From NCBI GenBank assembly GCA_963747875.1, contig CAVVGU010000002.1, forward strand, positions 70,829-134,828: DNA of 64,000 nucleotides, written 5' to 3'. The notes under the pieces were generated by a model that did not search any database, was not told the origin of the DNA, and was given only the letters and a program-made list of their open reading frames with translations. Shown piece after piece: positions 6,583-31,774 of this stretch; within the stretch, counting starts at the first letter, position 1; every line of letters begins with the position of its first letter. Source of the stretch: an uncultured Solirubrobacterales bacterium. GTDB taxonomy: Bacteria; Actinomycetota; Thermoleophilia; Solirubrobacterales; Solirubrobacteraceae. A program made the position numbers and the translations under genes.

Positions 6583-6610
6583 GCCGTTGGCGACCCGTGC
6601 GATGGCTCAC

Positions 6611-9547
6611 TCACCCCCCCCGCTTCCCGCGACGGGCACCGGCCTTCCCGCCCTTACCGCGCCTGTGCGCAGCCTTCTTCTTGGACGCCTTCTTTGCCTT
6701 CGGGCAGCCGGTGACCGCGATCTTCGTGCTCTCCCGTATCAGATCCCCGTTCTGCGCAAGGAATTCCGTCGGCATCGCCAGCGCGCCCTTGCAGAGGTTC
6801 CCGTTCGCCGCCAGCGCCGAGTAGGGGCCCTGCGGCAGCGTCAGTTCGAAGCTGCCGATCGGGTCGTCGGGGACCGTGTGAAACGTGCTGCTCGTGATCC
6901 CGGTCTTTTCGTTGATGAACGTTTCCCCGTGCAGGTCGAGTGTCACGCCGTAGCCCTGGAGGACCATCACAAGTTCGGGGAACTTCGCGCCACCGTAGGA
7001 GACGAAGTACGCCGGGCCCGTCAACGGCACGGGCAGGATTGGAGTGGTCGCCGTGGCGTGCCCGACCGCGGAGTCCGCAGGGCACGATGCCGGGTTCGCC
7101 TCGAATGTCGCCGCGAGGCAGGCCTTGCGCAGTGTCGTCAGCCGGGAGGGTAGACGCTTGGGGAGTTCGACTTTGACGAGTTTGATGTTCGTCTGCGTGC
7201 CCTGCGGCGCATCCGGGTACGCCAGGTGCACCGTGAGGCTCGCCCCGTTCGCTTTGCTGGTCTTCCCCGAGCTCGAGACCTTGAACTGGGGTTTGAACTG
7301 CAGGTTCTGGCAGTTCGCCATCTGGAAGGAGTTCGTGACCGTCGCGAAATCCTGGTCGGCTGGGTTCGCCGGTTCGGCGCCCCCACCACCGACGGTCGCG
7401 GCGAAGCTCTCGGGGTCGCAGTTGGTCGGGTTGATCATGAAGTTCGGCCGGTCGATGTAGACGCGGATGTCACGGACATGGATCACGATCCCGTCGATGA
7501 TGTGCGGGATCGGGTCGGACGCTTTCGCGTCGACCGTCACAATCGCGGTTTCGGGGTTGATGACCAGCGCCTCCCTGACGACGACCGTCCCGAGGTCGAA
7601 CGGGCCGACCTTCGCGCTCGTGATCGCGACGATCGAGAACGGCGCACCGTTGTACGGGCCCGCCATGTAGACCTTCCCCGGCGTGTAGGCGAGCACCGAG
7701 CCGACCCCGGCGCCGACGAGGGAGTGCCCGATTTCGCTCGCCGCGGGACACGACGGTTCGGCCTCCTCCTGCGCCCCGCTCACGTGCTTGGCCGCTTCGA
7801 TGTCCGCGTCCGGGCAGAACGGGACCCCGGTCAGTTTCGCGGTCAACCCGGCGGGTAGGATCGAAGTGAACCTGGTGATCTCCTGTTCGCCGTCGTTGCG
7901 GGTGATGCGGATATCCATCGGGCTGTACGCTCCGGCGCTGTTATTCAACGTGCCAGCGACGATCCCCGGATGAAACGGCGGGACGCCACCCGCCGGGCAG
8001 GGGCCGCCGCCGATCCCGTTTTCGATCTGGAAGGAGCTCAGCAGGTGGCGCGCTTCAAGCGGCGCCGACCACGGCGAGAGCTCCGCTTCGGTCGTGTACG
8101 TCCCGCACGCCGCCGGGCTGATCAGCGGCGAGGCCGCTCCCTGGCGCAGCTTCAGCGTGAACTTGCTGAACGGGACCTGCGGGCTTTCATCGAACGTCGT
8201 GACGAGCTGGCCGGTCACGGGGTTCGGTTCGATATGCCCCTGCAGCCTGACGACGATCCCGCGGAACGGGTCCTTCACGACGACATACAGCGCGAGCAGC
8301 GACCCGAACTTATTATCGAACGGCGTCGCGATATAGATGTTGCCCGTCAGCTTTTCCGCGAGCACCGGTGTTTCCACTTCCACGGTGCCGATCTTCGATT
8401 CCGCCGGACAACCAGTGCCGGGCAGCGAGGAGAAGGTTTCCGCTTCAAGCTGCTGTGGCGTGCATGTGCCGAGACCGACGGCCAGCGAGGGGTTGGCGGT
8501 GTAGCCCACGGGCAGCACGACCGTTGTGTCCTTCAGGTTCGACGCCGCCACCACTTCCGGGAACGCCCAGTTCTGCGGCACCACAAGCGAGATGTTCAGG
8601 CCGCTTGAGGATTCCGCCGAGCCGGTCGTGGGCGCGACTTCGATCGATGGGTGAAACGGGACGCGTTCGCATTCCACGATCGGACCGACCTGGGTTTCAG
8701 CTTCGGAGTAGCGCCCCGGTTCCTCCCACGAGTCGGCCCGCATCCTCGCGGTGAACGGGCCACAGCTCGTCGGGTTCGCCAGAAACGGCAGGTGCGGGAT
8801 ATCGACCGCGTTTCCGCCCCCGAAGCATTCCACGGTTTCGCTGCTAGTCGTCGTCTGGCAGACCAGTCCGCGTTCGGCGTCGTGCACGTGCGAGGCGGGA
8901 ATGCCCCATGTCGTGACTGAGATTTCGTGGGGTTCGGTGAGCGAAGCGATATCGGGGGCTGTGACCGTCAGCCCGGAGTCCCCCGGGCGGACCGTGATCG
9001 GCAGCACCTGGACAAACCCGAGTGCCTTGAAGCCGAGCTCGGCCACGATCCCGGGCGAATTGACTTCCATGTTATACACCGGGAAGATCATCCTCACGGG
9101 GTGCTTGGTCCCGAACGTCAGAGCCAGCGCGATCGTCCCAACCTGCGTATCCGGCGGACAGCTCGAAGTCCCCGAGCCCCCACCACCAGACGCCACAGCA
9201 GTCAGCAGCGCAGACGTGCACGTTGGTAGGGCGGTGTTATTGCCAACAAAGCCGGCGGGCAGTTCGACGATCGTTTCACGGACGTCGCCCAACGGCTTAC
9301 CCAGCGCGTCATGCGTGAAATTGAAGGCGACCGTGAGATCCTCATTGGCGCCCGCCTGGCTCGTCGAGGTGCTCACGTGAAAGCTTCCCGGTTCTATTTC
9401 GAATGGCTGTTCGCTCGGCGCCGCCGCTGCCGATCCCACGAACAGAAGGCCCACCACAAGCGCAAGCATCGCAAACATACCCATGCGCCACCTGCCAGCA
9501 CCGACGCGCGCCACCCCAGCCCGATACCTGCCGTCAAGGGCGATCAT
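6611..9547 (-). CDS. type A1: large secreted Cys-motif repeat protein with polybasic C-terminal tail (unknown family)
   Basis: 978-codon ORF with a signal-peptide-like MGMFAMLALVVGLLFVGSAAAAP. It has four modules, each with C-x(9-23)-C-P-x(4)-[IV]-G (CPPDTQVG, CPAESKIG, CPAASEIG, CPADSAVG). It ends in VTGCPK plus a K/R tail finishing KRGG. The ATG overlaps the B1 stop (ATGA 9544-9547). Confidence 0.85.
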   Translation of the reverse strand: MIALDGRYRAGVARVGAGRWRMGMFAMLALVVGLLFVGSAAAAPSEQPFEIEPGSFHVSTSTSQAGANEDLTVAFNFTHDALGKPLGDVRETIVELPAGFVGNNTALPTCTSALLTAVASGGGGSGTSSCPPDTQVGTIALALTFGTKHPVRMIFPVYNMEVNSPGIVAELGFKALGFVQVLPITVRPGDSGLTVTAPDIASLTEPHEISVTTWGIPASHVHDAERGLVCQTTTSSETVECFGGGNAVDIPHLPFLANPTSCGPFTARMRADSWEEPGRYSEAETQVGPIVECERVPFHPSIEVAPTTGSAESSSGLNISLVVPQNWAFPEVVAASNLKDTTVVLPVGYTANPSLAVGLGTCTPQQLEAETFSSLPGTGCPAESKIGTVEVETPVLAEKLTGNIYIATPFDNKFGSLLALYVVVKDPFRGIVVRLQGHIEPNPVTGQLVTTFDESPQVPFSKFTLKLRQGAASPLISPAACGTYTTEAELSPWSAPLEARHLLSSFQIENGIGGGPCPAGGVPPFHPGIVAGTLNNSAGAYSPMDIRITRNDGEQEITRFTSILPAGLTAKLTGVPFCPDADIEAAKHVSGAQEEAEPSCPAASEIGHSLVGAGVGSVLAYTPGKVYMAGPYNGAPFSIVAITSAKVGPFDLGTVVVREALVINPETAIVTVDAKASDPIPHIIDGIVIHVRDIRVYIDRPNFMINPTNCDPESFAATVGGGGAEPANPADQDFATVTNSFQMANCQNLQFKPQFKVSSSGKTSKANGASLTVHLAYPDAPQGTQTNIKLVKVELPKRLPSRLTTLRKACLAATFEANPASCPADSAVGHATATTPILPVPLTGPAYFVSYGGAKFPELVMVLQGYGVTLDLHGETFINEKTGITSSTFHTVPDDPIGSFELTLPQGPYSALAANGNLCKGALAMPTEFLAQNGDLIRESTKIAVTGCPKAKKASKKKAAHRRGKGGKAGARRGKRGG

Positions 9548-12500
9548 TTCGCACCTCCCGGCCGCCGCACAGACCGTTTCACGCCGGCAGCCTTCCTTCG
9601 TCTCTTGACGGCGCGCCTCTGCCTCTGCTGCTTCTTCCTTTTCTTCGTTTTCGGCGTCGCCTTCTTGATCGTCTCACTGGATTCTGGGGCGCTGGCCACG
9701 ACGTCTCCGGCGCCCTGGAAGCTCGCGCTCGACGGCGTCAGATCGTTCGGGGCCACGAACGGCACCGCGCAGGAATCCCCTTCGCATTCCACCGCAGCAG
9801 GCGGCGGCGGCGGGAAGCCGCCATCGATCCGCGCGTCATAGACATCACCTGCCGTGTCCGTATCCTGGGGAACAAGCGATTCGTGGGTCGCAAAGAACAC
9901 GTCCCGGCCCGACGGACTCGCACCGACCAACTCGCTCAGATAACCACCGCCCCGGCCACCGGATATCAGCGCGAGACAGCCCTCCACAGCCGCACAGCCA
10001 TCGACACCCTCACGGCGCCACTCATACACATCGCTCGACCTCGACCGGAAGAATTCTTCAGGTTCGGCGCCAGGTTCGGTGGAAGGGCCTATTTCGCCGT
10101 CGCTGTCCTGCGGCACCAGAGCGTCCGGTGTTTCAAAGAAGACGAAGTCGCCGTTTTCCGACGCGAACACCTGACTCGGCGTGCCGTCGAAGCCATAGAT
10201 CGCATAGAGGGCGGTGGAGGCGAACCTCGGCCGCGGGTCGAATGGCGATGCGCACGAAATACACTCAATGACGTTTTCGCTGCTGTCGTAACGATAGATC
10301 TGCTTGCCCACTTCGTCTCGACCGAGGCCGCCGGGGACGCCGGGAAAGCCTCCCGAAGTTCCTTCGAAAACAAGGTAGCGCCCGTCGGCGCTCACGTTCA
10401 CTATTTCACTGAAATATAGGGGAACGTAGTGAAGGGTTTTGCTTGACACATCATACCGGTAAAGCGCTGACTGGCCTGTCCCAGCCTGACCTTCGGGCGT
10501 CAGGGCCGCTTGAGTCGAAATGTAGATCGTCGAAAAATCGGCTGAGACCTTGACGAAGAACTGTCCTGGCACAGTGAAGAGGTGTTCAGCCGTTTGCGTC
10601 CCGGTGTCATACAGGAAGGCTTCGTGAGCCCCTCCGTTGACGTGTTCGAGCAGGAGCGAGCTGCCCTGGGAATTCGCGGCCAGAAACTTGTATTCGCCGA
10701 TGTCGACGGTTTCCACACCATTGACGCGCTCATAAAGATGCGTCTGCGGTCCGCCGTTTTCCAGTTCGCTTTCAAGTTGTTCATGTGCGGGGCATTGACT
10801 GCCCGACACAGCGTAAAAGAAGACACGGGCGCCATCGGACGAGACGGAGTGCGCGCTGCTCGTCGGCGCACCGCCACCGCGCGGACGGATCGCGAGCCCT
10901 TCGATGCCCCGCGTCATCGCGGCACCACACGTACCGATCGGCGCACCCGGGGTCCCACTCTGCACATTGACCTGGCGCAACTGTCCTTCGGAGTATTCGT
11001 AGAGATCGTTCCCGCTCTTGGTCGCACTCACGTGCCCGGGCACCAGCGCACGATCTTCGGTGCCGATGATCAGCTTGCCTAGATCGGGGGACGCCGCAAC
11101 CAGGAGCGGATTGGAGGTCACGTACTTTCTCGGGATCGACGCGATCGACAGGTAGGGACCAGCGGGAGGACCGACCTGGAGCTCGACCGTCGGCGATGCG
11201 GACACTGGACTATCGTCCCATCCGACCTGCATACCGGCTTCGGTCAGGTCCGGATTGAACACCACCGGAACATAGGAGTCGATCGCGGCCTGCGGCTGCG
11301 GAGTCGCGGAGGTCATCTGCCACCCTCCGGATGTCCGCGAGAAGAAGTAGTTCGACTTGCTGGCGTCAGGACTCGACCCCCACTGCGTGCCCGGCGCATG
11401 CAACATGAAATGTTCACCATCTTCACTCACGCGAAATTCATCGGTGATACCAATGCCTGTATCCGTGTCCTGCGCTCCGTTCTTTTCGGCGGGCGTGACC
11501 TGCTCATAGGCACGACAGTCCGGCAACGCAGCCGACGGGCCAATGCGGAGCGCTTCATTGGGACAGCCTTCGCTCACACCTACCTCCGGCAAGACCGGCA
11601 CCGTCAAGGTCTGCTCACCGCTGTGAACACCCTGCGGGGCGGCTTCGTTGCTTGCAATCAGCCGGTAGCGGTAGGTGACGCCAGGCTGAAGTTCGGGGAG
11701 ATCCCCACCTGCGCCGACGTAAGCGTAGCCCGAGCCCGCATCCATTTCGGAGGTGGTGGCAGCCCCGGCAAACCCCTGTTCTTCGAAATGCTGCTGCGAT
11801 ACGTATTCAAAATGGTAGTGCGAATCGGCGCCGTGGGGGTCGACAGCCCCCAGCGCCACCATATCTTCGCCGCTCACAGAGTGCACCGCATACGTGGTGG
11901 CGGTGGGCGGCCCCGCCGTTTCAAAGCTCTTTACAGGCGAGGTGGCGCCCTTATGAACACCAGGTGCCGGTTCGGATTCTGCGAAGAGCCGGACATAGTA
12001 GGTGGTGGCAGGACTCAGGCCACTGAGATCCCCCGAGACAGAACTAAAGCCCGCTTCGTTTTCTTCCCCCGCAGGAGTGGTGCCACTCACTCCGGGCGCG
12101 ACATGGAATTCTCCATTTTCGCTGTTCGCGTATTCGAACTGCCAGTGGACTTCCTCGCCGTGAGGCTTGAAGAAGCCCTTCAATTCAGCAGCAGTTCCCT
12201 TGATGCCAGTAAATTCTTGTACCCTGACAAAGGTCGGATAAAACGGCACGGCTTCACAACGATAATCCCGCTTTTCGCCCGTAGATTCTTCGGTTTCGAA
12301 CGGGGCCGTTCTGGTGCCCGAGGCGTTGGTGGCAGTCAGACGCACGTAGTAGACAACTTCAGCTGTCAGTCCCGCAAACGTGGCAGCAAGAGGCACGTCC
12401 ATCGGATGGGCTTCCATTTCGGCCTGGGTCACCGTGCCGCTGGCGCCCGGAACCAGCGTCCAGGGACCGGCTTCGCTACCGGCATATTCAAAGGCCCAGC

Positions 12501-12819
12501 TTACAGGCTGATTTTCGGTGCTGAAATGCCCGAGCTCGCCTGTAAGTTTCATTGACATGTGAGTTACTCCCACACACATGGCTCCGTTAGGTTCTGGCGG
12601 CGAGCTAGCGAGAGCAGAGCCCGGTACAACCCAGAGGAAAAGCCCCACCAGTGATAAGGCCGAAAAGAGAGATACGCGATAAACGATGGGCGCTCCCCTC
12701 CTTTGGCTGCCCAGGAGGACACGGAGCATGGCGAAGCGACCGGTCTCCGGTGTGGAAGTGGACTTCGCGTAGTGCTCTGTGGTTTTCACGATCGTGCCTT
12801 TCTCGGTTTCAATGTTCAT
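9544..12819 (-). CDS. type B1: secreted Fn3-like repeats plus TolB/PD40-like beta-propeller protein with polybasic tail
   Basis: About four repeats have the pattern W.FEY...G.W....L.GL.P.T.YY.R (Fn3-like). These are followed by CPNEALR...LPDCRAYEQVTP, then repeated DG..VFF / SADGRYLVFE propeller-like blades. The C-terminus is ECEGDSC...SFQGAGDV plus a 40-aa K/R tail. The start is uncertain: ATG 12819 or ATG 12729, the latter directly preceding the signal-like LFSALSLVGLFLWVVPGSALA. Confidence 0.8.
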   Translation of the reverse strand: MNIETEKGTIVKTTEHYAKSTSTPETGRFAMLRVLLGSQRRGAPIVYRVSLFSALSLVGLFLWVVPGSALASSPPEPNGAMCVGVTHMSMKLTGELGHFSTENQPVSWAFEYAGSEAGPWTLVPGASGTVTQAEMEAHPMDVPLAATFAGLTAEVVYYVRLTATNASGTRTAPFETEESTGEKRDYRCEAVPFYPTFVRVQEFTGIKGTAAELKGFFKPHGEEVHWQFEYANSENGEFHVAPGVSGTTPAGEENEAGFSSVSGDLSGLSPATTYYVRLFAESEPAPGVHKGATSPVKSFETAGPPTATTYAVHSVSGEDMVALGAVDPHGADSHYHFEYVSQQHFEEQGFAGAATTSEMDAGSGYAYVGAGGDLPELQPGVTYRYRLIASNEAAPQGVHSGEQTLTVPVLPEVGVSEGCPNEALRIGPSAALPDCRAYEQVTPAEKNGAQDTDTGIGITDEFRVSEDGEHFMLHAPGTQWGSSPDASKSNYFFSRTSGGWQMTSATPQPQAAIDSYVPVVFNPDLTEAGMQVGWDDSPVSASPTVELQVGPPAGPYLSIASIPRKYVTSNPLLVAASPDLGKLIIGTEDRALVPGHVSATKSGNDLYEYSEGQLRQVNVQSGTPGAPIGTCGAAMTRGIEGLAIRPRGGGAPTSSAHSVSSDGARVFFYAVSGSQCPAHEQLESELENGGPQTHLYERVNGVETVDIGEYKFLAANSQGSSLLLEHVNGGAHEAFLYDTGTQTAEHLFTVPGQFFVKVSADFSTIYISTQAALTPEGQAGTGQSALYRYDVSSKTLHYVPLYFSEIVNVSADGRYLVFEGTSGGFPGVPGGLGRDEVGKQIYRYDSSENVIECISCASPFDPRPRFASTALYAIYGFDGTPSQVFASENGDFVFFETPDALVPQDSDGEIGPSTEPGAEPEEFFRSRSSDVYEWRREGVDGCAAVEGCLALISGGRGGGYLSELVGASPSGRDVFFATHESLVPQDTDTAGDVYDARIDGGFPPPPPAAVECEGDSCAVPFVAPNDLTPSSASFQGAGDVVASAPESSETIKKATPKTKKRKKQQRQRRAVKRRRKAAGVKRSVRRPGGAK

Positions 12820-12907
12820 CTATGCGTGGTGGCGTCGATGCTCCCGATGCTCTCCTTACATCGAGGAGTCACACAGCGGGTGGCAAGCTGCACTTAGACG
12901 ATTGGCG

Positions 12908-13705
12908 CTACCCAGCGCTCACCGCCCAGGTGCCGTCATAGCCCTCGTTTTCTCCAGCGGTCTGATGGGTCACGACGGCGCCGGTCGTTCCTGCCCCTGT
13001 TTCGGACACCCCGGGATGTTGGATGAAACCGATGCCTTCGCTGAAGCCGCCCGAGGCTCCACCTTCGAATAGACAGAGATTGCCTGGGTCCGCCTTCGGT
13101 TCGACCGGCGTCCCACCGCAACCGGCGGGGATTTCATTTTTCGCGACCTGTTCGGCGGTGACAAAGTGCGCTTCCGCCGTCGCGATCGGGGCAGCGAGCG
13201 GGATCGCGAAGGAGACCGCGAAGTGAATCACCTTCGAGGCGCCGGATTCGGCGAACCAGGCCCCCGTCTCCGTCTTGCCTCCAGGCAGGGTTTCGGTGAA
13301 GCCGGTCTGGCCGTTGCAGGCGTACGTCGCGCTCCCCGCCCCCGCCTTGAATTCCGCGCCGCCGCGTTCTTCGCACTTCGACACACCGACCGGCACAGCC
13401 GTGTTCGTGACGCTCGTACCCGGGGTGCCGTTCGTGCCGGCTTTGCCTTCCGGTCCCTGAGGACCCGGGGCACCCTTTTCGCCTGGGGCACCGTTGCTCC
13501 CGTTCGTCCCGTTGGTCCCATTCGCGCCCGCCGCGCCGGCCTTGCCCTGCAGCGCCTTCAGCACCTTCGGGCTGATCTGCTTCGTCGAGGTGATCACATA
13601 CCGGCTCGCGGCATACGCCCCACCGCTCATCGCGAACACCACAGCGACTGTCACCGCGACGTTCGCGTACGTGACGCGCCTACGTATCCCAGAGAACATC
13701 AGCAC
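12908..13705 (-). CDS. type C1: secreted collagen-like (GXY repeat) protein with C-terminal globular domain
   Basis: The signal peptide ends AYA/AS. About 15 uninterrupted G-X-Y triplets (GKAGAAGANGTNGTNGSNGAPGEKGAPGPQGPEGKAGTNGTPGTS) are encoded at about 13412-13546. A domain of about 165 aa follows. GAGGAGG lies just upstream of the GTG/ATG start. Confidence 0.85.
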   Translation of the reverse strand: MLMFSGIRRRVTYANVAVTVAVVFAMSGGAYAASRYVITSTKQISPKVLKALQGKAGAAGANGTNGTNGSNGAPGEKGAPGPQGPEGKAGTNGTPGTSVTNTAVPVGVSKCEERGGAEFKAGAGSATYACNGQTGFTETLPGGKTETGAWFAESGASKVIHFAVSFAIPLAAPIATAEAHFVTAEQVAKNEIPAGCGGTPVEPKADPGNLCLFEGGASGGFSEGIGFIQHPGVSETGAGTTGAVVTHQTAGENEGYDGTWAVSAG

Positions 13706-13862
13706 AGAACCTCCTCGACGGTCGTGTTAAGACATAGGGCCGCCCTCCCCCCGGGGAGGCCGGCAGATACCCGCCCGCGCGCGGGCAGCAGAAGACCGCC
13801 GCGGGCACGCGCCCCGCGGCGGTCGCAGAAAAGGGGGCCTCAGCGGCTAGCTGAGGCGCACA

Positions 13863-13882
13863 AGAGAGAGAGAGAGAGAGAG
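13863..13882. repeat. (AG)10 / (CT)10 microsatellite in leader copy 1
   Basis: Counted directly as 10 AG units, immediately adjacent to the hairpin GATGCGGCAG-gctg-CTGCCGCATC. Confidence 0.9.
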
Positions 13883-14121
13883 ATGCGGCAGGCTGCTGCC
13901 GCATCTAGCTACGCTCCCCTGACGGGGCGCGAGAACTCTCATCACGTCTGTCCCTCCAGAACTCACGCGTAAACAACTCCCTCGAGCAATTCGACCCAGG
14001 CTCCCTCTCCCAAGGGCTCCCATTTACAAGTGCTTCAGCGGGCCGGCCGCGAGGGCCCGGACCCAAACCTGATCTATGTTGAAAAACACCCGGCGACCCA
14101 AAAGACCACCGTGTGTTGCCC

Positions 14122-14151
14122 ATCATATACACGTTCGTAGGTCCGCGTCAA
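14122..14151 (-). promoter_or_regulatory. near-consensus promoter TTGACG-18 nt-TATGAT (minus strand), copy 1
   Basis: On the plus strand, cgtcaa lies at 14146-14151 and atcata at 14122-14127. The sequence is identical in all three repeat copies. This is a motif match only, with no TSS data. Confidence 0.5.
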
Positions 14152-14209
14152 GCCCCCAACCACGAACACCTCCGGAGGCCGCCCTCGGAGGTCATCAAAC
14201 CGGGGGCAA

Positions 14210-14627
14210 GGCGCCGATGCGCGCCGACTCAGAGTCGCCCGCCAACCCCCCACCACGCGTCCGCGCCCCACCACGCGCCGGCGCCCCACCCCCAACCAAC
14301 TCAGAGCCCAGCGCCGGCCCCGCACCACGCTCCGACAGCCGTGTGTGCAGCACCGCGAGCACCGCACCGACGACACCCTCACCGCTCAGCGGCGCCACCT
14401 CGCCACGCCTCGCTTCCCCGCGGCCCTCCTCGACCGCGACGACGAGCACACCCACCACCGCCGCCCGGCGCTCCAGCGCCCGCGGACCCGCGCCGAGCGC
14501 ATGCACCACACAGCGCACCGAGATCCGGCTCCTCATCGAAGAACCCCAGTAGCGCCACCAACGCCCCCCGCACCCGCTCCCGCCAACGACCACCGCCCGC
14601 GAACACCGGCACCACCCGCGCCGCCGC
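14210..14627 (-). pseudogene. type R2 remnant: internal fragment of the dual-HTH regulator
   Basis: Only the central part is present (SAAARVVPVF...GALVALLGFFDEEPDLGAL / CVVHALGAGPRALERR...GDSESARIG). The TetR HTH and the C-terminal wHTH are both missing. Relative to R4 there is also a 2-nt loss in a CA run near 14510, which splits the frame across track ORFs 14379-14615 and 14195-14593. Confidence 0.8.
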
Positions 14628-14633
14628 GCTTAC

Positions 14634-17600
14634 TCACCCCCTCCGCTTCTTAGCACGCGGATGGGCATGCCGGTTCTTCGGCTTCTTGTGCACCGCCTTC
14701 TTGGCCTTCGGACAGCCGGTGACCGCGATCTTCGTACTCGTATGGATCTGCGCGCCGTTCTGCCCCACGAATTCCGTCGGCATCGCCAGCGACGTTTTGC
14801 AGAGATTGCGGTTCGCCGCAAGCGCCGAGAACTGGCCCTGGGGCAGTGTCAATTCAAACGTACCGACCGGAACGTCGGGGATCGCCTTGAACGTACTACT
14901 CGTAATCCCCGTCTTTTCATTGATGAATGTCGAACCGACCAGATGCACCGTCGCGCCATAGCCCTGCAACACGATCACCAGGCTCGGGAACTGTTCCCCA
15001 CCGTGCGAAACGAAGTACGCCGGACCCGTCAACGGCACCGGCAACACCGGTGTGCTCGCAGTCGCGTGGCCGACGATCGACGCCGCGGGGCACCCCGCGG
15101 GGTTCGCTTCGAACGTTTCCGCCTTGCACGCCTTCTGCAGCGTCGTCAACCGCGAGGGCAGCGCCTTCGGCAGTTCCACTTTGACCCTGGCGATGTTCGC
15201 ATCGTACGGCCCCGCCGGGTAGCCCAGTTTGACGGTCAGGCTCGCGCCGCCCGCCCTGGTGGTTTTCCCCGACGTCGAAGCAGTCAGCTTCGGCTTGAAC
15301 GCGAGCACCGCGCAGTTCGTGATCTGAAACGGCACCGAGAGCGCCGAGGTGGACCCTTCGCTCGAACCGAGGTTCCCGGTGATCGCGAGCGGGCTGCAGT
15401 TCGTCGGGTTGAACGTGAAATCGGGCCGGTCGATCGACACGTTCACGTGCTTGATCTGCAGGGGGATCCCGTCGATGATGTGCGGGATCGCGTACGGACC
15501 CGAGGGGTCCGTCGTGATCGTCAACTGCGCGGTCGTCGGATCGACTTCGATCTTCGCGCGGACGATCACCTTCCCCAGGTCGAACGGGCCCGCCTTCGCC
15601 GGGTTCACGATCGACAGACCATACGGCGCGCCGTCGTACGGGCCGGTGATGAACACTTCGCCGCCTGTCACGGTGTACGGGTTCCCCCCGAGGCCGACAC
15701 TGACGATCGTATGCCCGATCAGGCTTTCCGCCCCGCAGGTGCCCTGGTCGGCCTGCGGTTCCCCGCACAGCTTCACGGTGGAGAGCGTGCCGAGCAGCCC
15801 CGGGGGCATCTTCAGCTGGATCGCCTGCAGGTTCTGCTCCCCGTCCCCGCGGGACATCGTCATCCGGAACGGGCTGAACCCGCCGGCCTGGATACTCGTC
15901 GTACCCGCCGTCAGGCTCGGCTCGAACGGCAACGGGTCAGAGCACGCCGCGCCGTTCGGACCCGAGGCGATCTGGAACTCCGAGGAGGATTCCACCGGTG
16001 CGTTCCCCGACCACGGCGTGATTGACGCCGTCGTCGTATATGTGCCGCACAGAGCCGGAGTACCCAACGGCGCCCGCGACCCACCGAAGAAATGCAGACT
16101 TAGATCTTCGAACGGAAGCTGCGGGGTGTTTTCGAACGTCGAGACCAACTGCCCGGTCACCGGGCTCGGCGTGACCTGCCCCGCGAGCTTCACCAGCACA
16201 CCCGACACGGGGTCCCGCGCGACGACGTACAGCGCGATCAGCGACCCGAACGGGTTCGCGTCCTGCTGCGCCAGATACACCGCGCCGACCAGCGGATTCG
16301 GCAGTAGCGGCGTATGGATTTCCACCGTCCCGACCTTCGCCGATTCCGGGCACGTCTGTTCAGCTGAGCTTTCGAGGCCGATTTCGCCCAGGCCACATGC
16401 GGACAGGTCATCCGCGCCGGCCGGATTCAACGCCACGCCCGCCGGCAGCGTCACCGTGGTGTTCCTCACGTTCGCCTCCCCGTCACCGGCCGGGTTCAAA
16501 TCGGCAGCCTGGGGAACGTGCACGCCGACAGTCAAACCCGTCGGCGAACTGCCGGCCTGCCCATCCGGCGCGACCTCGATCGACGGTTCGAAGCTCAAGC
16601 GGTTGCACCCGTCCAGCCCGTACGGTTCACCGGCGACATTCGCAGAGGTGTATTCCGTGGTCGCGAACTTCCCGGGCTGCTCCCACGAATCGGCTTCCAT
16701 ACTGGTCCGCAACGGGCCCGTACACGACGTCGGCAGCACCAGGAACGGCTGCCCGTTCGCCTGCCCCGGACAGGAGACTTCCTGAAGTCCGCTTTCTCCG
16801 AAGCTGAACTCATCCAGGCATCCACCGCGCACAGTGTCGTGCCGGGTTTCGCTCGGGTCGCCCCAAAACGTAACCTGGCTGCCGATGAAGGCGACGTCCT
16901 GGAGGATATTGGGCACCGTGACGACAACGCCATAGTCTCCCCCGGTGCGCACCGATGTGTCGAGCACCACCGGTCCGGCAAGCGTCGTGAAGCCGAACTT
17001 CGCGGGCTCTCCCACCGATGGTGTGAGGTTGTACAGAGGCTTCGATTCGGCCCACGGCACCTGTGTGCCTGCGCGTACATTGGTGACTATCACCGTGGCG
17101 ACGCCGATGGCTGAGTCGGCAGGGCATTCGACCTGTTCTTCGCTGGTCAGAGTCGACTGGTGCGTGAAGACGTATGTGCTGCACTGCGGCAGCACAGTTG
17201 GGTTACCGACCAGCCCAGGCGGCAGATTGAAGCGCAGGTCCTTGGTCAGTCCGAGCGGCTCGACTTCCGCGAGAGCTTCGTTGGCCCCTGAACCGGACTG
17301 GCGAGGCACCGACTGCGCGCTCAGCCCGAACGTCGTCGTGAACTGAAACGGATGCGATCCAGCCTGGGTATCCAGCGCGCCGCCCTCTTCTTCGGGAGTC
17401 AATTCATAGTTTTCGACCCCGTACGGTGCCGGCGCGCCCCCGAGCGCCAGCGGCCGCCGCTGGACGACCGGGGACGTCCCGCCGCCAGACACGCTCACTT
17501 CGTTCTCGCCACGGCCCGCACCGGGCGCCACCGTGACCGTCATCGCGATCATCAACCGTTCGTAAGGCAGCAGCGGCCCGCTGTAGGTGCACGTCAGCGT

Positions 17601-17939
17601 CGCCAGCGTGCAGCTCGTGAAGGCCGCCGCGTTCGTCCTGTTCAGTTCGCTGCCTCCCCCTTCTCCGTAGATATTGGTCGCAGTCACGCCCGCGGGCAAC
17701 CTGTCCACAACAGTCACAGGCTGTTCGAACCCGTTGGCCATCGCGTCGCCCAGATTGCTCACTTCCACCACCACCCGGTCTTCGATAGCCGCAGTGTTCG
17801 CCGGCGCGGAGACGGTATCGACATGCCACCACGGCGTCGCCGCAGACGCCCGGCCCGCACCGCATGACGCGACCAACACCACCGCGACAGCCGACAGGCC
17901 CGCCCTCACGACAACTCTCCTGAGCGTATATCCACTCAT
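14634..17939 (-). CDS. type A2: large secreted Cys-motif repeat protein with polybasic tail
   Basis: The start is set at ATG 17939 (MSGYTLRRVVVRAGLSAVAVVLVASCGAGRASA), overlapping the B2 stop as ATGA 17936-17939. The mature N-terminus is TPWWHV, followed by a DUF11/CARDB-like first domain (VEVSNLGDAMANG...VVDRLPAGV). Further motifs are AGSHPFQFTTTF, CPADSAIG, CPESAKVG, CGAESLIG and CPAASIVG. The C-terminus is VTGCPKAKKAVHKKPKNRHAHPRAKKRRG. Confidence 0.85.
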   Translation of the reverse strand: MSGYTLRRVVVRAGLSAVAVVLVASCGAGRASAATPWWHVDTVSAPANTAAIEDRVVVEVSNLGDAMANGFEQPVTVVDRLPAGVTATNIYGEGGGSELNRTNAAAFTSCTLATLTCTYSGPLLPYERLMIAMTVTVAPGAGRGENEVSVSGGGTSPVVQRRPLALGGAPAPYGVENYELTPEEEGGALDTQAGSHPFQFTTTFGLSAQSVPRQSGSGANEALAEVEPLGLTKDLRFNLPPGLVGNPTVLPQCSTYVFTHQSTLTSEEQVECPADSAIGVATVIVTNVRAGTQVPWAESKPLYNLTPSVGEPAKFGFTTLAGPVVLDTSVRTGGDYGVVVTVPNILQDVAFIGSQVTFWGDPSETRHDTVRGGCLDEFSFGESGLQEVSCPGQANGQPFLVLPTSCTGPLRTSMEADSWEQPGKFATTEYTSANVAGEPYGLDGCNRLSFEPSIEVAPDGQAGSSPTGLTVGVHVPQAADLNPAGDGEANVRNTTVTLPAGVALNPAGADDLSACGLGEIGLESSAEQTCPESAKVGTVEIHTPLLPNPLVGAVYLAQQDANPFGSLIALYVVARDPVSGVLVKLAGQVTPSPVTGQLVSTFENTPQLPFEDLSLHFFGGSRAPLGTPALCGTYTTTASITPWSGNAPVESSSEFQIASGPNGAACSDPLPFEPSLTAGTTSIQAGGFSPFRMTMSRGDGEQNLQAIQLKMPPGLLGTLSTVKLCGEPQADQGTCGAESLIGHTIVSVGLGGNPYTVTGGEVFITGPYDGAPYGLSIVNPAKAGPFDLGKVIVRAKIEVDPTTAQLTITTDPSGPYAIPHIIDGIPLQIKHVNVSIDRPDFTFNPTNCSPLAITGNLGSSEGSTSALSVPFQITNCAVLAFKPKLTASTSGKTTRAGGASLTVKLGYPAGPYDANIARVKVELPKALPSRLTTLQKACKAETFEANPAGCPAASIVGHATASTPVLPVPLTGPAYFVSHGGEQFPSLVIVLQGYGATVHLVGSTFINEKTGITSSTFKAIPDVPVGTFELTLPQGQFSALAANRNLCKTSLAMPTEFVGQNGAQIHTSTKIAVTGCPKAKKAVHKKPKNRHAHPRAKKRRG

Positions 17940-20900
17940 CGCCCGCCCCCCTTTCCACTCGTTCTCGTAGCGCGAGCCCGTCGCGCTCGCCTGACCTCGT
18001 GTCCTCTCGCTTTCCCTCTGCGCCTCTTCCCTTTCGCCCTGCGCTTCGTCTTTTTTTTGCGCTTGGAAACGTGCGGCTTGACCACTTCCGGCTTGGCTTC
18101 TTCGAGTATGTTGCCGGCCCCCGAGAACGTCCCGCTCGGCGGAGCTCCGAACACTTCGGGCTGCGGGGACGGTGCGGCCTTGCACGAATCCCCAGAAGTG
18201 CACGGTGGCGGCGCCACCGGAGCGGTCGTACACGGCACGCTCGTCGTGCAGACGTGGGCGTCATACACGTCAAGGCTGTTGTCGTAGTCCGCGGCGCTCA
18301 GTCGGCTCGCGGTCAGGAAGAACACGTCGTTCCCCGTTTCGCTGGCATCCACAAACGCCGATTCCTGATCGGACGTACCCGAGGAGATCAGGCTCACACA
18401 GCCCCCGGAACGCGTGCTGAACGTAGCGCTCCCCATTTCGCAGCTGCCGATACCCGCGGGCTCATACTCGTATGCGTCCAGCAGCCCGTTCGTGTCCTGC
18501 GGCACGAGCGCGTCGGGGCTATCGAAGAACAGCCGGCCGCTGTCCGATAGATACCGCGGCTGATACAGCGAGCGTTCAAAGCGAACTTCGACCCAGCCCG
18601 GGACGAAGCCAGCGACCCACTGACCCTTCAGGGCGGCGTCGGTCCTGAGATTGCGGTCCCCGAGCACGTTTGTCGCCGTGTCGAGCACCCCCACGGGCCG
18701 TGCCCCCGTCGGATCGCACGACGCGCACACCAGATGCCCGGTGAGCGCGTCGTACAGGTACACCTCGTCGTCGGGCTGTCCACTGCCCGCGTCGATGTTG
18801 TCATAGCCGGTCAGCGACCTGCTCGACATGAACGCCAGGTAGCGGCCGCCCGGCGAGACCCTCGATCTCACGCCGTTGAGATTCACCGGCCCCCCGAACG
18901 CCTTGCTGTACCAGTCATGTTCGTCGGCGCTCGACAGCGTGGCGATATAGCCGATCGTCCATTCGCCGCCGTGCTCGTGCGCCACATAGAGGTTGTCTTC
19001 GCCCGCCACCGCGGCGCTCCCGCTTGCCAGGACGCCCGTCGCCACGAAATACACGTACGAACCGTCTTCGCTTGCGCCGAGCACGGCGTCCTTCACGCCC
19101 GCGCTGGCTTCGCCGGCGAGGTGGTCGACCGTGAGATCCATCTGTGTAGCGGTTCCTGTGTCGAACTCGTACAATTCACCATCTTCCAGAAAGAAGATCC
19201 GTGACCCGTCACTGCTCATCGTCTGCAGGATCGGATTATGACGGGCGCCGATCTGCGTGGTCTTCCCGGCGGTCATGTCGCGGACGTACAGCGTCGCGTG
19301 TTCCCGTTCAGAGTAGTACGGGTTACCCCCCAACGACCAGACCACCCAGCGGCCGTCGCTCGATACCGCGCGTCGGGCCGAGCCGAACCCATTCCCTTCG
19401 CCACCCAGCTGCGCCCCGGCCGTCGCTTCTTCGTCGGGCAGGACGCTCACCAGCTGCGGTCGCCCGGCGCTCCACTCATATAAATATTGATCCACGTTTT
19501 CTGTCCTGACTTCCGGGATTCCGGGGGTCAGCGCCAACTCGGACTTGATGATCACGTGACTCAAATCCGGTGTCGCTGCGACGAATTCCACCGCGGATTC
19601 ACGGTTTTTTAGCGATTCCCCCACTTCCCCTTCGAGTTTTGTGCCCGCTGGGACATTCGCCGCCGTGAGGAGCGGCCTATAGCTCCCATCGGTATCGTTG
19701 CGCAGGTACAGTTTTCCTTCCGTCGCTTCAGGCGAAAGAGGCGTCCGTGCGGTCCCCTCCTGCCGGACCGCGGCAAGCGACAGGTCCGGGGAGAATACCC
19801 GATATTCAGGGCCCTCGACGTCGATTTCCTGCTGTGTTCCAAGGCTGTGCGGCGGCGTGATGTCCTGCGACTCCCAGCCGGCGGGGCCGCGCCTGGAGAG
19901 GATCTGCGAGATCGGGGTCTTGCCCACCGGGTTTTCCCCGATCGCTTCGGTCGCCGCATAGGCGATCCCGCTGCCATCGTCCGCCGCCTGCACCGGGGTA
20001 CCGCCGAAGACTTCGATCAGGGCGCCGCTCTTGTTTGGCGGCGACACGAGTTCCCAGGCGCGCCCATCCGCCAGAGCCGCCCCCTGTCCGGCGACCACCT
20101 GCGTGCTGAACGTACGATCGGCGCCTGCGACGGTCCCGACTGCGCTGACCGTCACGACCCGGTAGTGATAGACCGTGCCCGCCTGCAGTCCCTGCACGTG
20201 ATAGCCGACCGGCACATAGCCCATACCGCTACCCACACTCCCGGACAGGGCGTGTCCGTAGGAGGTGTCCGTCCCGTATTCGAGCCGGTATTCCGTGCTC
20301 GCGCCCAACGGGTCTACCCGCGCTGACAGCGTCGCGCTCGTGCCCGCAACATTCGTCGCCCACGGGCCTTCGATCAGCGCCGGCGGCGTCGTTTCGAGCA
20401 CCCGGTCCGGGCCGACGGTCGCATGGCCGGCCGAATCGTCGGCCACGAGCCGGTAGTGGTAGGTCCCTCCCGGGACCAGGCCCGTCAATTCGACGACGGC
20501 CGTGTGATCTTCGAAGAGGCCGGACGCGGCCGTGGCGCTGGGCGTGCTCGTTGCGCTCGCGAAGCCCCCGCTCAGATATTGAGTCTCACCGACGTATTCG
20601 AAATGGTAGGTCGTTGCGTTGCCCTCAGGGTCGACCTGGGCTTCGAGCGTCGCGGCGCCCCGCAGCCCGGACACGGATGACTCGCTATCGATCAACGGCC
20701 CCGGCGGGGGCGCCGCCAACACCCATACCCTGTTCTGTTCAAAGGCTGACGCATACAGCCGTTGCGTGACCGCCGAGAACGCCAGGCCCCCGTTGCCGCC
20801 AGCGACGGTGCCAGACCCGAAGTTCGCAAGCTCCCCGCCGGCCGAGTCGTACTCCAGCACATGGAAGCCGCCGCCGGAATCGCCGACATACACATCGCCC

Positions 20901-21766
20901 GCGGCATCGAGCGCCAGCGCCGTCACCGACGTGCTGCCCGGATCGAGCTGAAAGCCGGCTTCGATCCCTCCCGGTTCGAACTCCCGCACCCCTGGGACGC
21001 CCCGGTCATACACATACACGTCCCCCGTCGCGTTCACCGCCAACGCCTTCACAGCGGCCGTGCTGGAGAGACCAGACAGCGAGATGCTTTCCTTCCAGGC
21101 GCCCGCGGCTGTGAACACCTGCACACGCGCCATATCGCCGACGTACACGTCGCCGCCCGGACCGACAGCGACGAAGCCGCCGCCCGACCAGCTGAATTCC
21201 CCGTCCCCGGCCCCTTCAGTCCCAAAGCCGCATTCTTCTGTGGCGAGACACACATCCCCGCTCGTGCGCCGGTTCACATGCCCGCCGAACATCAATAGAA
21301 ATTCCCCGTTCGGCCCGTACTTCTCCACGCGTTCGCGCGGGTAATCGGCCACATACACATCCCCGAGGGAGGGGCTTCCAAGTTCGTCGTCGACCGCCAC
21401 TCCGCTGGGGTATCCACCGAATGGACCACCGACCGTCGAGCGTTCCTTCTGTTCACGCCCTTCTTCACATACGCTCGTGCAGATCTGAAATTCTTCGAGC
21501 CCGCTCAGCACCCCTTCGCCCCACGCCAGCGCGAAGGGGCCCCCCGCTTCGAACTTGTCGACGCGATGGTTTCCAGAATCCCCGACATACACGTCACCGG
21601 CCGCGTCGACCGCGACACCGGTCGGAGATAGGAGCTGTCCCGCGCCGTTACCGGTGCTGCCGAACTGGGTCGCCGCCCCCGCGCAATCCACGGAGAGCGT
21701 GAAGACACCACCAAACGCACACACCGATACCAACAGAGGCACGACAAGCCGGCGCACACCCCACAT
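17936..21766 (-). CDS. type B2: secreted NHL-repeat plus Fn3-like plus PD40-like beta-propeller protein with polybasic tail
   Basis: The start is set at ATG 21766 (MWGVRRLVVPLLVSVCAFGGVFTLSVDCAGA). NHL-type blades include GDVYVGDSGNHRVDKF, GDVYVADYPRERVEKY and GDVYVGDMARVQVF. Two Fn3-like units carry TYHYRLVA and TVYHYRVV. Propeller blades include SSDGRWVVW and SPGGRYLAFMSSRSLTGYDN. The C-terminus is CTSGDSC...TFSGAGNI plus a K/R tail. Confidence 0.85.
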   Translation of the reverse strand: MWGVRRLVVPLLVSVCAFGGVFTLSVDCAGAATQFGSTGNGAGQLLSPTGVAVDAAGDVYVGDSGNHRVDKFEAGGPFALAWGEGVLSGLEEFQICTSVCEEGREQKERSTVGGPFGGYPSGVAVDDELGSPSLGDVYVADYPRERVEKYGPNGEFLLMFGGHVNRRTSGDVCLATEECGFGTEGAGDGEFSWSGGGFVAVGPGGDVYVGDMARVQVFTAAGAWKESISLSGLSSTAAVKALAVNATGDVYVYDRGVPGVREFEPGGIEAGFQLDPGSTSVTALALDAAGDVYVGDSGGGFHVLEYDSAGGELANFGSGTVAGGNGGLAFSAVTQRLYASAFEQNRVWVLAAPPPGPLIDSESSVSGLRGAATLEAQVDPEGNATTYHFEYVGETQYLSGGFASATSTPSATAASGLFEDHTAVVELTGLVPGGTYHYRLVADDSAGHATVGPDRVLETTPPALIEGPWATNVAGTSATLSARVDPLGASTEYRLEYGTDTSYGHALSGSVGSGMGYVPVGYHVQGLQAGTVYHYRVVTVSAVGTVAGADRTFSTQVVAGQGAALADGRAWELVSPPNKSGALIEVFGGTPVQAADDGSGIAYAATEAIGENPVGKTPISQILSRRGPAGWESQDITPPHSLGTQQEIDVEGPEYRVFSPDLSLAAVRQEGTARTPLSPEATEGKLYLRNDTDGSYRPLLTAANVPAGTKLEGEVGESLKNRESAVEFVAATPDLSHVIIKSELALTPGIPEVRTENVDQYLYEWSAGRPQLVSVLPDEEATAGAQLGGEGNGFGSARRAVSSDGRWVVWSLGGNPYYSEREHATLYVRDMTAGKTTQIGARHNPILQTMSSDGSRIFFLEDGELYEFDTGTATQMDLTVDHLAGEASAGVKDAVLGASEDGSYVYFVATGVLASGSAAVAGEDNLYVAHEHGGEWTIGYIATLSSADEHDWYSKAFGGPVNLNGVRSRVSPGGRYLAFMSSRSLTGYDNIDAGSGQPDDEVYLYDALTGHLVCASCDPTGARPVGVLDTATNVLGDRNLRTDAALKGQWVAGFVPGWVEVRFERSLYQPRYLSDSGRLFFDSPDALVPQDTNGLLDAYEYEPAGIGSCEMGSATFSTRSGGCVSLISSGTSDQESAFVDASETGNDVFFLTASRLSAADYDNSLDVYDAHVCTTSVPCTTAPVAPPPCTSGDSCKAAPSPQPEVFGAPPSGTFSGAGNILEEAKPEVVKPHVSKRKKKTKRRAKGKRRRGKARGHEVRRARRARATRTSGKGGGR

Positions 21767-21895
21767 CCCATCCCCCTCTCCTCTAGTAAAGACACGACCA
21801 CCGCCCGAAGCCCGGACGGCGGCAGAAGCACAAGCGACGAGACCGAGCTCGTCCCACGAGCGCGGGATCACGGCGGGTGGCGCCCCCAGTTCATC

Positions 21896-22762: not shown

Positions 22763-22907
22763 GATGTGCGCGACTGTCGCACCAGACGCACCCCGTTCGG
22801 CGACGACCTCGCAGAGCGCACCGAGAACCCTGGTGCGCTGGATCTCGTCGACCTGCTCGCGCGCGAAGGAAACCCCGTCGCTGATAGCGGCACGTGGGAT
22901 GACTCAC

Positions 22908-26168: not shown

Positions 26169-26173
26169 TCCTC

Positions 26174-29941: not shown

Positions 29942-30188
29942 CACACCATCCCCTCCCAGAAGGAATCCATACAAAACCCACCCGCACGCGGGCAGCACAA
30001 GGCCACCGCGCACGGGCGGCCCGCGGCGGCGAAGAAGTTAGATGCACGCACGCGTTGCGTGAAAGACAGGCTGCGGACCATCAAAAACAGCCAGCGAAGC
30101 GCAGGTCTACCCCACCCCCCCGGGGGGGATACCGGACGGCCCGCCAGGACCGGCCGCAGAGGGCTCTCAGCGGCTAGCCGAGAGGCAC

Positions 30189-30210
30189 AAGAGAGAGAGA
30201 GAGAGAGAGA
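30189..30210. repeat. (AG)11 / (CT)11 microsatellite in leader copy 2
   Basis: Counted directly as 11 AG units. Confidence 0.9.
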
Positions 30211-30479: not shown

Positions 30480-30579
30480 AGCCCCCAACCACGAACACCT
30501 CCGGAGGCCGCCCTCGGAGGTCGTCAAACCAGGGGCAAACCCCCGTTTCCTCATCGCTATGCCGTTCGCACCCAGGCGC

Positions 30580-31746: not shown

Positions 31747-31774
31747 GCCGTTGGCGACCCGGGCGATGGCCCAC

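Follow-up and report, generated by a model that had tools for sequence, protein, structure and literature searches.

The stretch of DNA analysed here (the window) comprises 64 kb of high-GC sequence from contig CAVVGU010000002.1 of an uncultured member of the Solirubrobacterales, and the subject of this work is a non-coding element that occurs in it three times, upstream of operons for collagen-like and giant secreted proteins. Four tandem paralogous units, all on the minus strand, form an array of ~33 kb (5512-38864) located between proA/proB (2495-5387) and obg (40825-42426). A full unit consists of COL, encoding a collagen-like protein of ~250 aa; B, encoding a secreted protein of 1100-1300 aa with fn3 and NHL repeats; A, encoding a secreted protein of 1000-1200 aa with no known domain; and R, encoding a regulator with TetR-type and MarR-type DNA-binding domains. 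Read along the minus strand, the order is copy 3-COL3-B4-A4-R4-copy 2-B3-A3-R3-B2-A2-(degenerate R2)-copy 1-COL1-B1-A1-R1, and copies 1, 2 and 3 of the element precede the operons that begin with COL1, B3 and COL3, respectively, so that the element heads three transcription units, as first proposed. Named relatives of the COL protein belong to the Solirubrobacteraceae. Searches of Pfam, NCBIfam, PDB sequences, PADLOC and PHROGs for a function of A and B gave only the fn3/NHL and collagen repeats.

The B2-A2 pair (14634-21871, minus strand) has no leader of its own, B2 starting 24 nt past R3, and a profile search of the window found no second leader within 14195-30013. Hence, five large genes appear to depend on the promoter of copy 2.

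Solirubrobacterales are abundant soil Actinomycetota for which, to our knowledge, there is almost no experimental genetics. The element marks a large family of these operons (5-9 or more per genome, ~8 kb each) and, through its predicted strong promoter and 290-nt RNA, gives a handle for studying them.

Three near-identical copies of a non-coding leader

The three copies are all on the minus strand, with cores at 14157-13830, 30486-30160 and 39316-38990, and the core common to them extends from GGGGGCTTGACG through TCTGCG (~330 nt). By blastn, copy 1 is 96.9% identical to copy 2 over 381 nt and 94.9% identical to copy 3 over 455 nt, and copies 2 and 3 are 96.3% identical over 321 nt, whereas the genes flanking the copies are only ~50-75% identical. 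The ~50 nt located 5' of the element, which represent the 3' end and terminal hairpin of an R gene, are also common to copies 1 and 2, and copies 1 and 3 share the whole leader as far as the COL start codon. In a sliding comparison of units 1 and 4, identity was ~40% 5' of the -35 box and 95% over the entire leader (14143-13697), and then fell from 74% to 57% and ~50% in the coding sequence. Leader length is ~410 nt for copies 1 and 3, and 430 nt or more for copy 2. When the window copies were left out of the profile, it still recovered exactly these three sites in the 64 kb (E = 1e-53 to 1e-56); as the profile derives from the copies of other genomes, the window copies are not chance matches.

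The original prediction, a note on this DNA made from the sequence alone, had described three near-identical non-coding repeats with leaders of 400-500 nt ahead of diverged proteins, duplicated GGGAGCC and GAGTTCT words, a perfect hairpin with a 10-bp stem at 13882-13905, and a (CT)n tract. These features were all recovered: each word is present twice, the hairpin has 11 bp if taken as 13881-13906, and the tract has 10 CT units in copy 1 but 11 in each of the other two copies. Two details needed correction. The 3-nt indel noted between copies is real, but the copies also differ by one CT unit and by a 4-nt deletion in copy 2 that removes its T-run; and the distal hairpin GACCGCCGCGGG/CCCGCGGCGGTC is indeed a perfect 12-bp inverted repeat, but with a loop of 7 nt rather than 6. 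The terminator-like end stem and the conserved length of the (CT)n tract had been missed. The features of the three copies are listed in Table 1.

Table 1. Leader features and the operons downstream of them in the window
Feature	Position	Strand	Remark
Copy 1 promoter, TTGACG-18-TATGAT	14122..14151	-	5' border of element GGGGG at 14157
Copy 1 SL1	14091..14111	-	5' hairpin just past predicted transcription start, followed in the window by a U-run
Copy 1 conserved block ACATAG..GGTTTGGGTC	14060..14079	-	From alignments
Copy 1 SL2 (GGGTC..GGCC..GGCC..)	14040..14064	-	Hairpin
Copy 1 GGG blocks GA0 and GA1 (GGGAGCCCTTGGGAGAGGGAGCC)	13999..14023	-	TGGGAGAGGGA conserved
Copy 1 GA2 block (GAGGGAG)	13974..13984	-	Nearly invariant across family
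Copy 1 GCGTG-GA3-ACGTG block	13943..13968	-	Small hairpin GUUC/GGAC inside
Copy 1 SL5	13881..13906	-	11-bp hairpin adjoining CT tract
Copy 1 (CT)10 tract	13863..13883	-	(CU)10 in RNA
Copy 1 SL6 and CCCCTTTTCT	13827..13857	-	Terminator-like hairpin; 3' end of block common to three copies
Copy 1 distal leader	13706..13826	-	GC-rich hairpins (13794-13824, others) and GAGGAGG ribosome-binding site; common to copy 3 only
Copy 2 promoter	30451..30480	-	
Copy 2 leader core	30160..30450	-	SL1 30420-30440, SL5 30210-30235, (CT)11 30190-30212, SL6 30164-30184 (no T-run)
Copy 3 promoter	39281..39310	-	
Copy 3 leader core	38990..39280	-	SL1 39250-39270, SL5 39043-39068, (CT)11 39023-39045, SL6 and T-run 38997-39017
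Copy 3 distal leader, to COL3 start	38865..38989	-	
Operon under copy 1	5512..13705	-	COL1 12908-13705, B1 9544-12819, A1 6611-9547, R1 5512-6582
Genes downstream of copy 2	14195..30013	-	B3, A3, R3, B2, A2, degenerate R2
Operon under copy 3	30580..38864	-	COL3, B4, A4, R4

The element in other genomes

Related genomes, which the original prediction had pointed to as a place to look for further copies, were searched in two ways. A scan of one genome per species with the pattern GCTAGATG-N12-24-ATCTCTCTCTCTCTC, which forces the base of a hairpin and at least 6.5 CT units, identified at least 120 additional copies, spread over 43 assemblies and reaching 9 sampled copies in a single genome; the matches listed were all in metagenome-assembled genomes (MAGs) of the Solirubrobacterales/Solirubrobacteraceae. 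Soil metagenomes were scanned with the purine blocks only (GGGAGAGGGA..TGAGGGAG..GCGTG), so that the CT tract was not required. Here, 47 of 89 usable matches were clear family members, in each of which the hairpin and CT tract follow after 81-84 nt, and the other 42 were unrelated purine-rich sequence, save an apparent decayed family member without SL5 and tract (L188).

The context of the element is nearly constant. Outside the window, 117 copies have 500 nt or more of sequence 3' to them, and 116 of these are followed directly, on the same strand, by R (82 copies), B (33) or COL (one). In L001, a MAG contig with a COL that is 84% identical, the element is ~75% identical and lies upstream of R-COL-B-A; in L003, where COL is only 50% identical, it lies upstream of COL-B-A-R. 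The leaders of L002, L219 and L222, which are more distant COL-B-A operons, are unrelated, and the element is therefore confined to one subclade of the operon family. Given this fixed context, and given that the sequence 5' of the -35 box is unrelated between loci, the element is best described as a portable promoter-plus-leader module tied to one operon type.

No match was found at gathering thresholds when the whole window was scanned against the covariance models of Rfam 15, in agreement with the statement in the original prediction that no known RNA family could be recognised. In an E-value scan of 13650-14250, the top-scoring model was that of the sodF small RNA (sRNA), but its 20 bits (E = 0.9) are below the threshold of 46 bits, and the hit lies outside the core on the strand opposite to the leader. 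The literature open to searching yielded no description of the element, nor of a relevant Solirubrobacter or Conexibacter RNA motif or collagen-like operon. The element is previously undescribed, although a structured cis-regulatory leader is familiar as a kind of object; what is unfamiliar is its architecture, which combines a G-rich body, three GA blocks and a hairpin-fused, length-conserved (CU)11 at multi-copy operons for giant secreted proteins. It forms a ready new RNA family for databases, clearly bounded and with 150 or more members.

Some related leaders deserve mention. The COL-B-A leader of L002 (9700-9830) has no CT tract and contains five AGGGA-like words (CACAGGGACAAG, CCAGGGACAAA, GCAGGGAGC, CAGAGGGCT and CACGGGACAAGGAGAGA); repeated GGGA motifs may be a more general feature of such leaders. 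A conserved box, CGCGTGCGTAGCGCT, lies just 5' of the COL ribosome-binding site in L001 (~9935-9955), L002 (~9960-9980) and L003 (~9955-9975). A similar sequence, ACGCGTGCGTGCATC, was found downstream of copy 2 (~30050-30075, minus strand), and is not present ahead of COL1 or COL3.

Promoter

In each of the three intergenic regions, TTGACG-18-TATGAT is the sole promoter-like site (0.0-0.1 expected by chance), and TTGAC[AGT]-17/18-TAnnnT is found at the promoter position in 103 of 119 family copies. The 5' end of the family reads GGGG(C)TTGACA, 17-18 nt, TAnnnT, and conservation sets in abruptly at the -35 box. As judged by this consensus, each copy of the module would be headed by a strong sigma-70-type promoter, and the near-consensus promoter of the original prediction stands. 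The transcription start of the leader is placed accordingly at a predicted position just 5' of SL1. No conserved palindrome was found in or near the -35/-10 region across the family copies. The promoter spacer differs among paralogues, and could hold paralogue-specific sites.

A hairpin, CCTCCGAGGGCGGCCTCCGGAGG, adjoins the -35 box on its upstream side in copies 1 and 2 (14168-14192 and 30497-30521, minus strand), at the ends of the R2 and R4 genes. It is not present at copy 3, whose upstream neighbour differs, and is likely an insulator or terminator between units.

Structure of the leader RNA

The leader RNA is G-rich and ~290 nt in length. Past the promoter, the family order is SL1, ACAUAGGGUCUGGUUUGGGUC, SL2, AAGCGC, UGGGAGAGGGA (GA1), UGGGUCG and UGAGGGAG (GA2), followed by GCGUG, a small hairpin UUUC-GAGAG-GGAG (GA3), ACGUG and a variable region. 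SL5 has the family form GAUGCGnCAGC-loop-GCUGnCGCAUC and is directly continuous with (CU)n, and the last CU units are taken into the stem of SL6. In loci where R is the first gene, SL6 is followed by CCUCCUCGUCG, a GGGCGC-n4-GCGCC stem with a U-rich stretch, and CCCCGCGGGGGG, and R starts ~165 nt past the tract; CCUCCUC lies between SL6 and the GGGCGC-n4-GCGCC stem, ahead of the R start codon. The part 5' of SL5 is 39% G and 20% C, and 37 of the 63 most conserved columns are G, nearly all within GGG runs. G-quadruplex (G4) motifs occur in 44% of copies, as compared with 11% of shuffles; in copy 1, GA0 and GA1 together with TGGG at 13995-13998 form a canonical G4 motif.

In two alignments, the named structures had 77-83% paired cells as compared with 32-57% for slid controls, and their covariation scores were matched by 0 and 6 of 500 shuffles. 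The sequence of SL1 is unique in 81 of 84 cases across the family, yet the hairpin is maintained (z = -1.8). In SL2, 93.6% of cells are paired in the family alignment, and whole helices are swapped between subfamilies (GUCA..UGAC versus GGCC..GGCC). For SL1 and SL2, z is about -1.85 on the gene strand versus -0.95 and -1.2 on the complement; in 89% of copies the sense strand is the more stable of the two, and G.U accounts for 22-25% of pairs. The GA3 hairpin is 92.8% paired, mainly by U.G wobble, with changes from U.G to G-C and U-A. The SL6 stem of copy 2 is maintained via two compensatory changes. The paired changes in SL5, at stem positions 3, 6, 7 and 9 (U-A to C-G, G-C to A-U and U-A to G-C), are all Watson-Crick, with no G.U, and hence SL5 taken alone could equally be a protein-binding palindrome. 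The hairpins other than SL5 carry an RNA-specific signal. The individual hairpins are solid, short of a solved fold. With compensatory changes, G.U pairs and sense-strand stability, the element behaves as a structured leader conserved in other genomes, which agrees with its original description as a candidate leader RNA.

Two further pairings were considered and set aside. A CAUAGGG/CUUGUGG pairing, obtained with RNAalifold in one subfamily, fails in the GGCC-type subfamily, where SL2 still holds. An isolated A/C-U/G pair flanking GCGUG, picked out by mutual information, looks like lineage coupling rather than a helix.

The (CU)11 tract

Apart from the three CT tracts, the 64 kb contain no perfect dinucleotide array. 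Among 156 distinct copies, the number of CT units is 11 in 124 (79%), 10 in 13, 12 in 6 and 13-14 in 7, and a few other tracts are short, very long or interrupted. Of the 47 copies from the metagenome scan, in which the tract was not required, 30 have 11 units, and the tract always starts at the base of SL5. A dinucleotide repeat of this length is expected to slip easily, and the constancy of the count therefore points to selection on tract length. Such a dinucleotide repeat, fixed at 11 units, is unusual for a regulatory RNA. The tract lies ~250 nt 3' of the -10 box, and no conserved reading frame crosses it.

The 3' end of the invariant tract lies within the SL6 stem (CUCUUCGG..CCGAAGAG), and folding also pairs the tract with the GA blocks. 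In partition-function folding, the tract is ~83% paired, always with two or three GA blocks at about -130, -104 and -78, and RNAfold gives the GA0/GA1 region as a predicted partner. This predicted GA/CU pairing needs G.U pairs and allows many registers. SL5 and the tract do not resemble an intrinsic terminator, in which a GC-rich hairpin runs directly into ~7-9 nt of U-tract: the 10-11-bp hairpin is followed by alternating CU with no U-run, and the terminator scan made no call there.

Individual copies depart from the common form. L078 (minus strand, ~5910-6010) carries a tandem duplication of SL5 and the CT tract, L071 carries (CT)22, and L132 only (CT)4.

Constraint and homogenisation

The closest relative of a copy belongs to a different genome in 81 of 105 cases; best matches have a median of 88% between genomes, as against 75% among copies of one genome. 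As nearest relatives are mostly found in other genomes, the paralogues are old and under purifying selection. Near-identical pairs were found only among tandem neighbours (L033/L097, L080/L116 and the window copies). Of 131 family-variable columns, 104 are identical across the three window copies, and the other 27 are probably for the most part flanking positions beyond the shared core; identity in the window falls from 95% to ~50% at sharp borders. The near-identity in the window thus reflects two causes, selection that acts across the whole family and, in addition, local gene conversion among the tandem units or a recent copying of their leaders. The original prediction had offered strong constraint and active homogenisation as alternatives, and both apply.

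A proposed cis-acting leader of the attenuator kind

The reading favoured here, with roughly even confidence, is that the element is a cis-acting regulatory leader of the attenuator kind, because it holds the only promoter available to the operon, conserved RNA structure, terminator-like end stems and two possible partners for the CU tract. The leader RNA would act in cis to set transcription, and possibly translation, from the promoter into the long operon. Its G-free (CU)11, the sole pyrimidine strand, would zip with the three GA-rich GGG blocks located ~130, 104 and 78 nt upstream, and the 3' end of the tract would also enter SL6, a putative terminator in the window. Whichever partner wins the CU tract would then decide between polymerase termination, release by a termination factor, and read-through. 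The sequences establish the promoter consensus, the conservation across the family, the fixed placement and strand, the hairpins of the RNA and the constant tract length; the start of transcription, the GA/CU pairing, attenuation and its triggering signal are inferred from them. If the RNA does work as a switch, bacterial leader regulators would gain a new architecture, and possibly a means to co-ordinate many paralogous surface-protein loci. As to the signal that might flip such a switch, a pause dependent on the SL5/CU hairpin, a pyrimidine-binding protein and a switch between G-quadruplex and duplex are equally open as sensors. Loading of Rho on the single G-free stretch would also be attractive, but the stretch is short by published criteria. 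Of the marks of a riboswitch, a conserved and covarying structured aptamer in the 5' leader of functionally related genes, the element shows conserved blocks, hairpins and a constant gene context, whereas a complete covarying fold did not emerge; the downstream genes suggest no particular ligand.

Several results weigh against this attenuator reading. Covariation, which the original prediction had suggested testing, was found in SL5, SL2 and GA3 but is modest elsewhere, and no complete covarying fold emerged. RNAalifold gave almost no consensus on plain MAFFT alignments of the whole RNA or its 5' half, where little was recovered because the variable hairpins misalign. A guessed hairpin, SL4a, was dropped as only 50% paired. 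The CU tract is invariant, so that its pairing with the GA blocks receives no covariation check, and a molecular-ruler model, in which CT length would track the purine-block total, was rejected as there was no positive correlation (rho = -0.20). A hairpin with a T-run was detected at SL6 in copies 1 and 3 whereas copy 2 has the stem without the T-run, and in the family at large only ~40% of copies have a hairpin and T-run within 200 nt. The start site, 3' ends and read-through are themselves deduced from the sequence. With respect to Rho, a classical rut site is C-rich, G-poor, unstructured and 60-90 nt long, with YC dinucleotides at least 7 nt apart (PMC5314796); the G-free stretch measures only 22-26 nt, is flanked by strong hairpins and falls outside this description. 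Actinobacterial (mycobacterial) Rho sites are, moreover, not YC-rich (PMC13650167). A rut site as the whole explanation is weakened by both sets of criteria (PMC5314796, PMC13650167).

Long leaders that head long operons are known to attenuate, examples being the zipper-type attenuator of pLS20 (PMC13401043) and the corA leader (PMC5314796). The pLS20 attenuator cATT (PMC13401043) and the element are both leaders of ~450 nt, each in front of a very long operon with regulators among its first genes, and each has a long central stem-loop between mutually pairable sequences, the downstream one of which overlaps a terminator; the ligand is known for neither. The two are unrelated in sequence and come from different host phyla, and the element is known from its sequence alone. 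Its 3' strand, unlike that of cATT, is a perfect (CU)11 that would pair with three purine blocks in many registers, and only in some copies does it clearly overlap a terminator. The Rho-dependent corA and mgtA leaders (PMC5314796) share with it alternative hairpins, a long leader, and a single G-free, C-rich stretch, within RNA that is otherwise G-rich, which pairing could hide or expose. However, the tract here has 22 nt, enough for about three of the six YC pockets of Rho and far below a rut site of 60-90 nt. A third comparison is with processive antitermination, represented by the leader RNAs EAR of the Bacillus eps operon and put of phage HK022. These, too, are conserved structured RNAs that lie close to or at the beginning of long operons for surface structures or polymers, and are followed by terminator-like stems through which transcription has to pass. 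The element shows no sequence or structure match to them (negative Rfam scan), and is larger and G-rich, with a CU repeat; no evidence emerged for terminators within its operons.

Alternative explanations

A free-standing sRNA that acts in trans would use the same promoter, have a body of ~290-350 nt and end at SL6 or the next stem; its exposed (CU)11 or its GGGA blocks would have other RNAs or a protein as their target, e.g. at purine-rich ribosome-binding sites or by CsrB-like titration, and its adjacency to the operons would be a matter of co-regulation only. We consider this rather unlikely. The block common to the window copies does span the -35 box to a terminator-like stem and T-run, there are several copies per genome, a 5' hairpin is typical of stable RNAs, and three to four AGGGA motifs lie ~26 nt apart with one in a small hairpin. 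Indeed, the CsrB/RsmZ sponges are likewise ~300-350 nt long, with evenly spaced (A)GGGA repeats, some of them in hairpins, an end terminator and several copies per genome; but they carry 9-22 motifs rather than three to four, and the element is fixed in cis to one operon type and has no Rfam match. An sRNA would also leave the operon promoterless, as there is no other promoter-like site before the first gene, and it would account poorly for a same-strand position directly upstream in 116 of 117 loci, for conserved leader sequence that runs past the tract to the R start codon, and for canonical terminators in only ~40% of copies. Control at the level of DNA, in which the SL5 palindrome and the GGGTC/GAGGGA words bind the TetR+MarR regulator or another factor, the (GA.TC)11 tract is a structural or roadblock element and the RNA is incidental, appears improbable. 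SL5 is a good palindrome (e.g. GCGCCA-GCT-TGGCGC), its Watson-Crick-only changes fit symmetric half-sites equally well, and a DNA-binding regulator adjoins 82 of 117 copies. Nevertheless, SL1 and SL2 hold their shape despite sequence change, G.U pairs are frequent in the hairpins other than SL5, whose folding is much better on the gene strand than on its complement, and the variants of SL5 are common to different paralogues and genomes rather than being regulator-specific. A TetR/MarR operator is expected to be a palindrome that overlaps the regulated promoter and is bound by the neighbouring regulator; the SL5 palindrome lies ~215 nt 3' of the promoter, and none is conserved over the -35/-10 region. 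The suggestion in the original prediction that the element is an operator platform for the R regulators is not supported here, and the evidence from the rest of the element points to structure at the RNA level.

A perfect dinucleotide repeat that precedes multi-copy secreted-protein operons also calls to mind devices that generate variation, either a slippage-prone contingency (CT)n tract or a G-rich recombination 'switch region' that turns on or shuffles paralogous surface-protein operons. The CTCTT repeats of Neisseria opa genes, the small RNA at the pilE G4 and the antibody class-switch regions are precedents. As in opa and pilE, a pyrimidine repeat or G-tract and a non-coding transcript lie upstream of multi-copy genes for surface proteins, and conversion seems to occur among tandem copies here, with tracts that centre on the leader. 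Length variants of 4-14 units and one of 22 exist, copy 1 is one unit off copies 2 and 3, and the RNA-like strand, at 39% G, has the excess of G4 motifs over shuffles (44% versus 11%) given above. This explanation is quite improbable, however, since 11 units in 79% of copies across deep divergence is the opposite of free slippage, and the tract, unlike the opa and pilE repeats, is conserved in length and lies neither in a conserved reading frame nor in the -35/-10 spacer. Most paralogues of the same genome are only ~75% alike, so that exchange is not general, and no silent cassettes were seen, nor a recombinase linked to the element. Attenuation by a leader peptide, in which a ribosome translating from the conserved ATG in GCTAGATG through the tract (as Ser-Leu repeats) would control the downstream stems by its position, is very improbable. 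A frame of 15-33 codons does open from this ATG in most copies, and SL5 comes in forms of 24 and 27 nt, a difference of exactly 3 nt; but the ATG is buried in the SL5 stem without a GGAGG-type ribosome-binding site, the frame is closed by a stop after 5 codons in an entire clade, to which L003, L014, L127 and L128 belong, and neither the end nor the length of the peptide is conserved. That the copies are functionless, and arose by recent duplication of the segment or as mobile elements (for instance, miniature inverted-repeat transposable elements), can practically be dismissed. The window copies, 95-98% identical with sharp borders, would fit it, but homologues of ~75% identity in 43 other assemblies, with the context constant in 116 of 117 loci, contradict a recent duplication that is confined to this locus, which the original prediction had named as the finding that would overturn it. 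There are no terminal inverted repeats at the borders and no target duplications, and purifying selection is visible in the conserved blocks and retained hairpins.

A bolder proposal, for which the chances are slim, is that the element represents a new class of large structured RNA in which the GGG blocks, as a G-quadruplex or paired with (CU)11, form a switch with the CU strand that operates across up to nine or more paralogous operons per genome. Such a switch might couple their expression, e.g. so that one operon is expressed at a time; or the element, as a transcribed G-rich switch region, might promote leader-to-leader recombination by which surface-protein cassettes are reshuffled or replaced.

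Other features of the locus

Two of the regulator genes are incomplete: R2 (14195-14593, minus strand) encodes a truncated or degenerate TetR+MarR regulator, and R3 (21896-22762, minus strand) is without the first half of the TetR helix-turn-helix. The linkers of R2 and R4 contain 18-nt tandem repeats, with 2.4 copies (14248-14290) and 3.7 copies (31089-31155), respectively, that encode a Gly/Arg-rich stretch.

Three genes (39406-40694, plus strand) are divergent from copy 3, namely a weak BrnT/DUF4258-like toxin gene (39406-39744), a gene for an 80-aa partner (39748-39990) and a short-chain dehydrogenase gene (39990-40694). At the corresponding place in L003 there is a DUF4160/DUF2442 pair. 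Outside the locus, arrays of 27-nt tandem repeats were found in coding regions at 42005-42096 (3.4 copies, in the obg frame) and 56076-56176 (3.9 copies).

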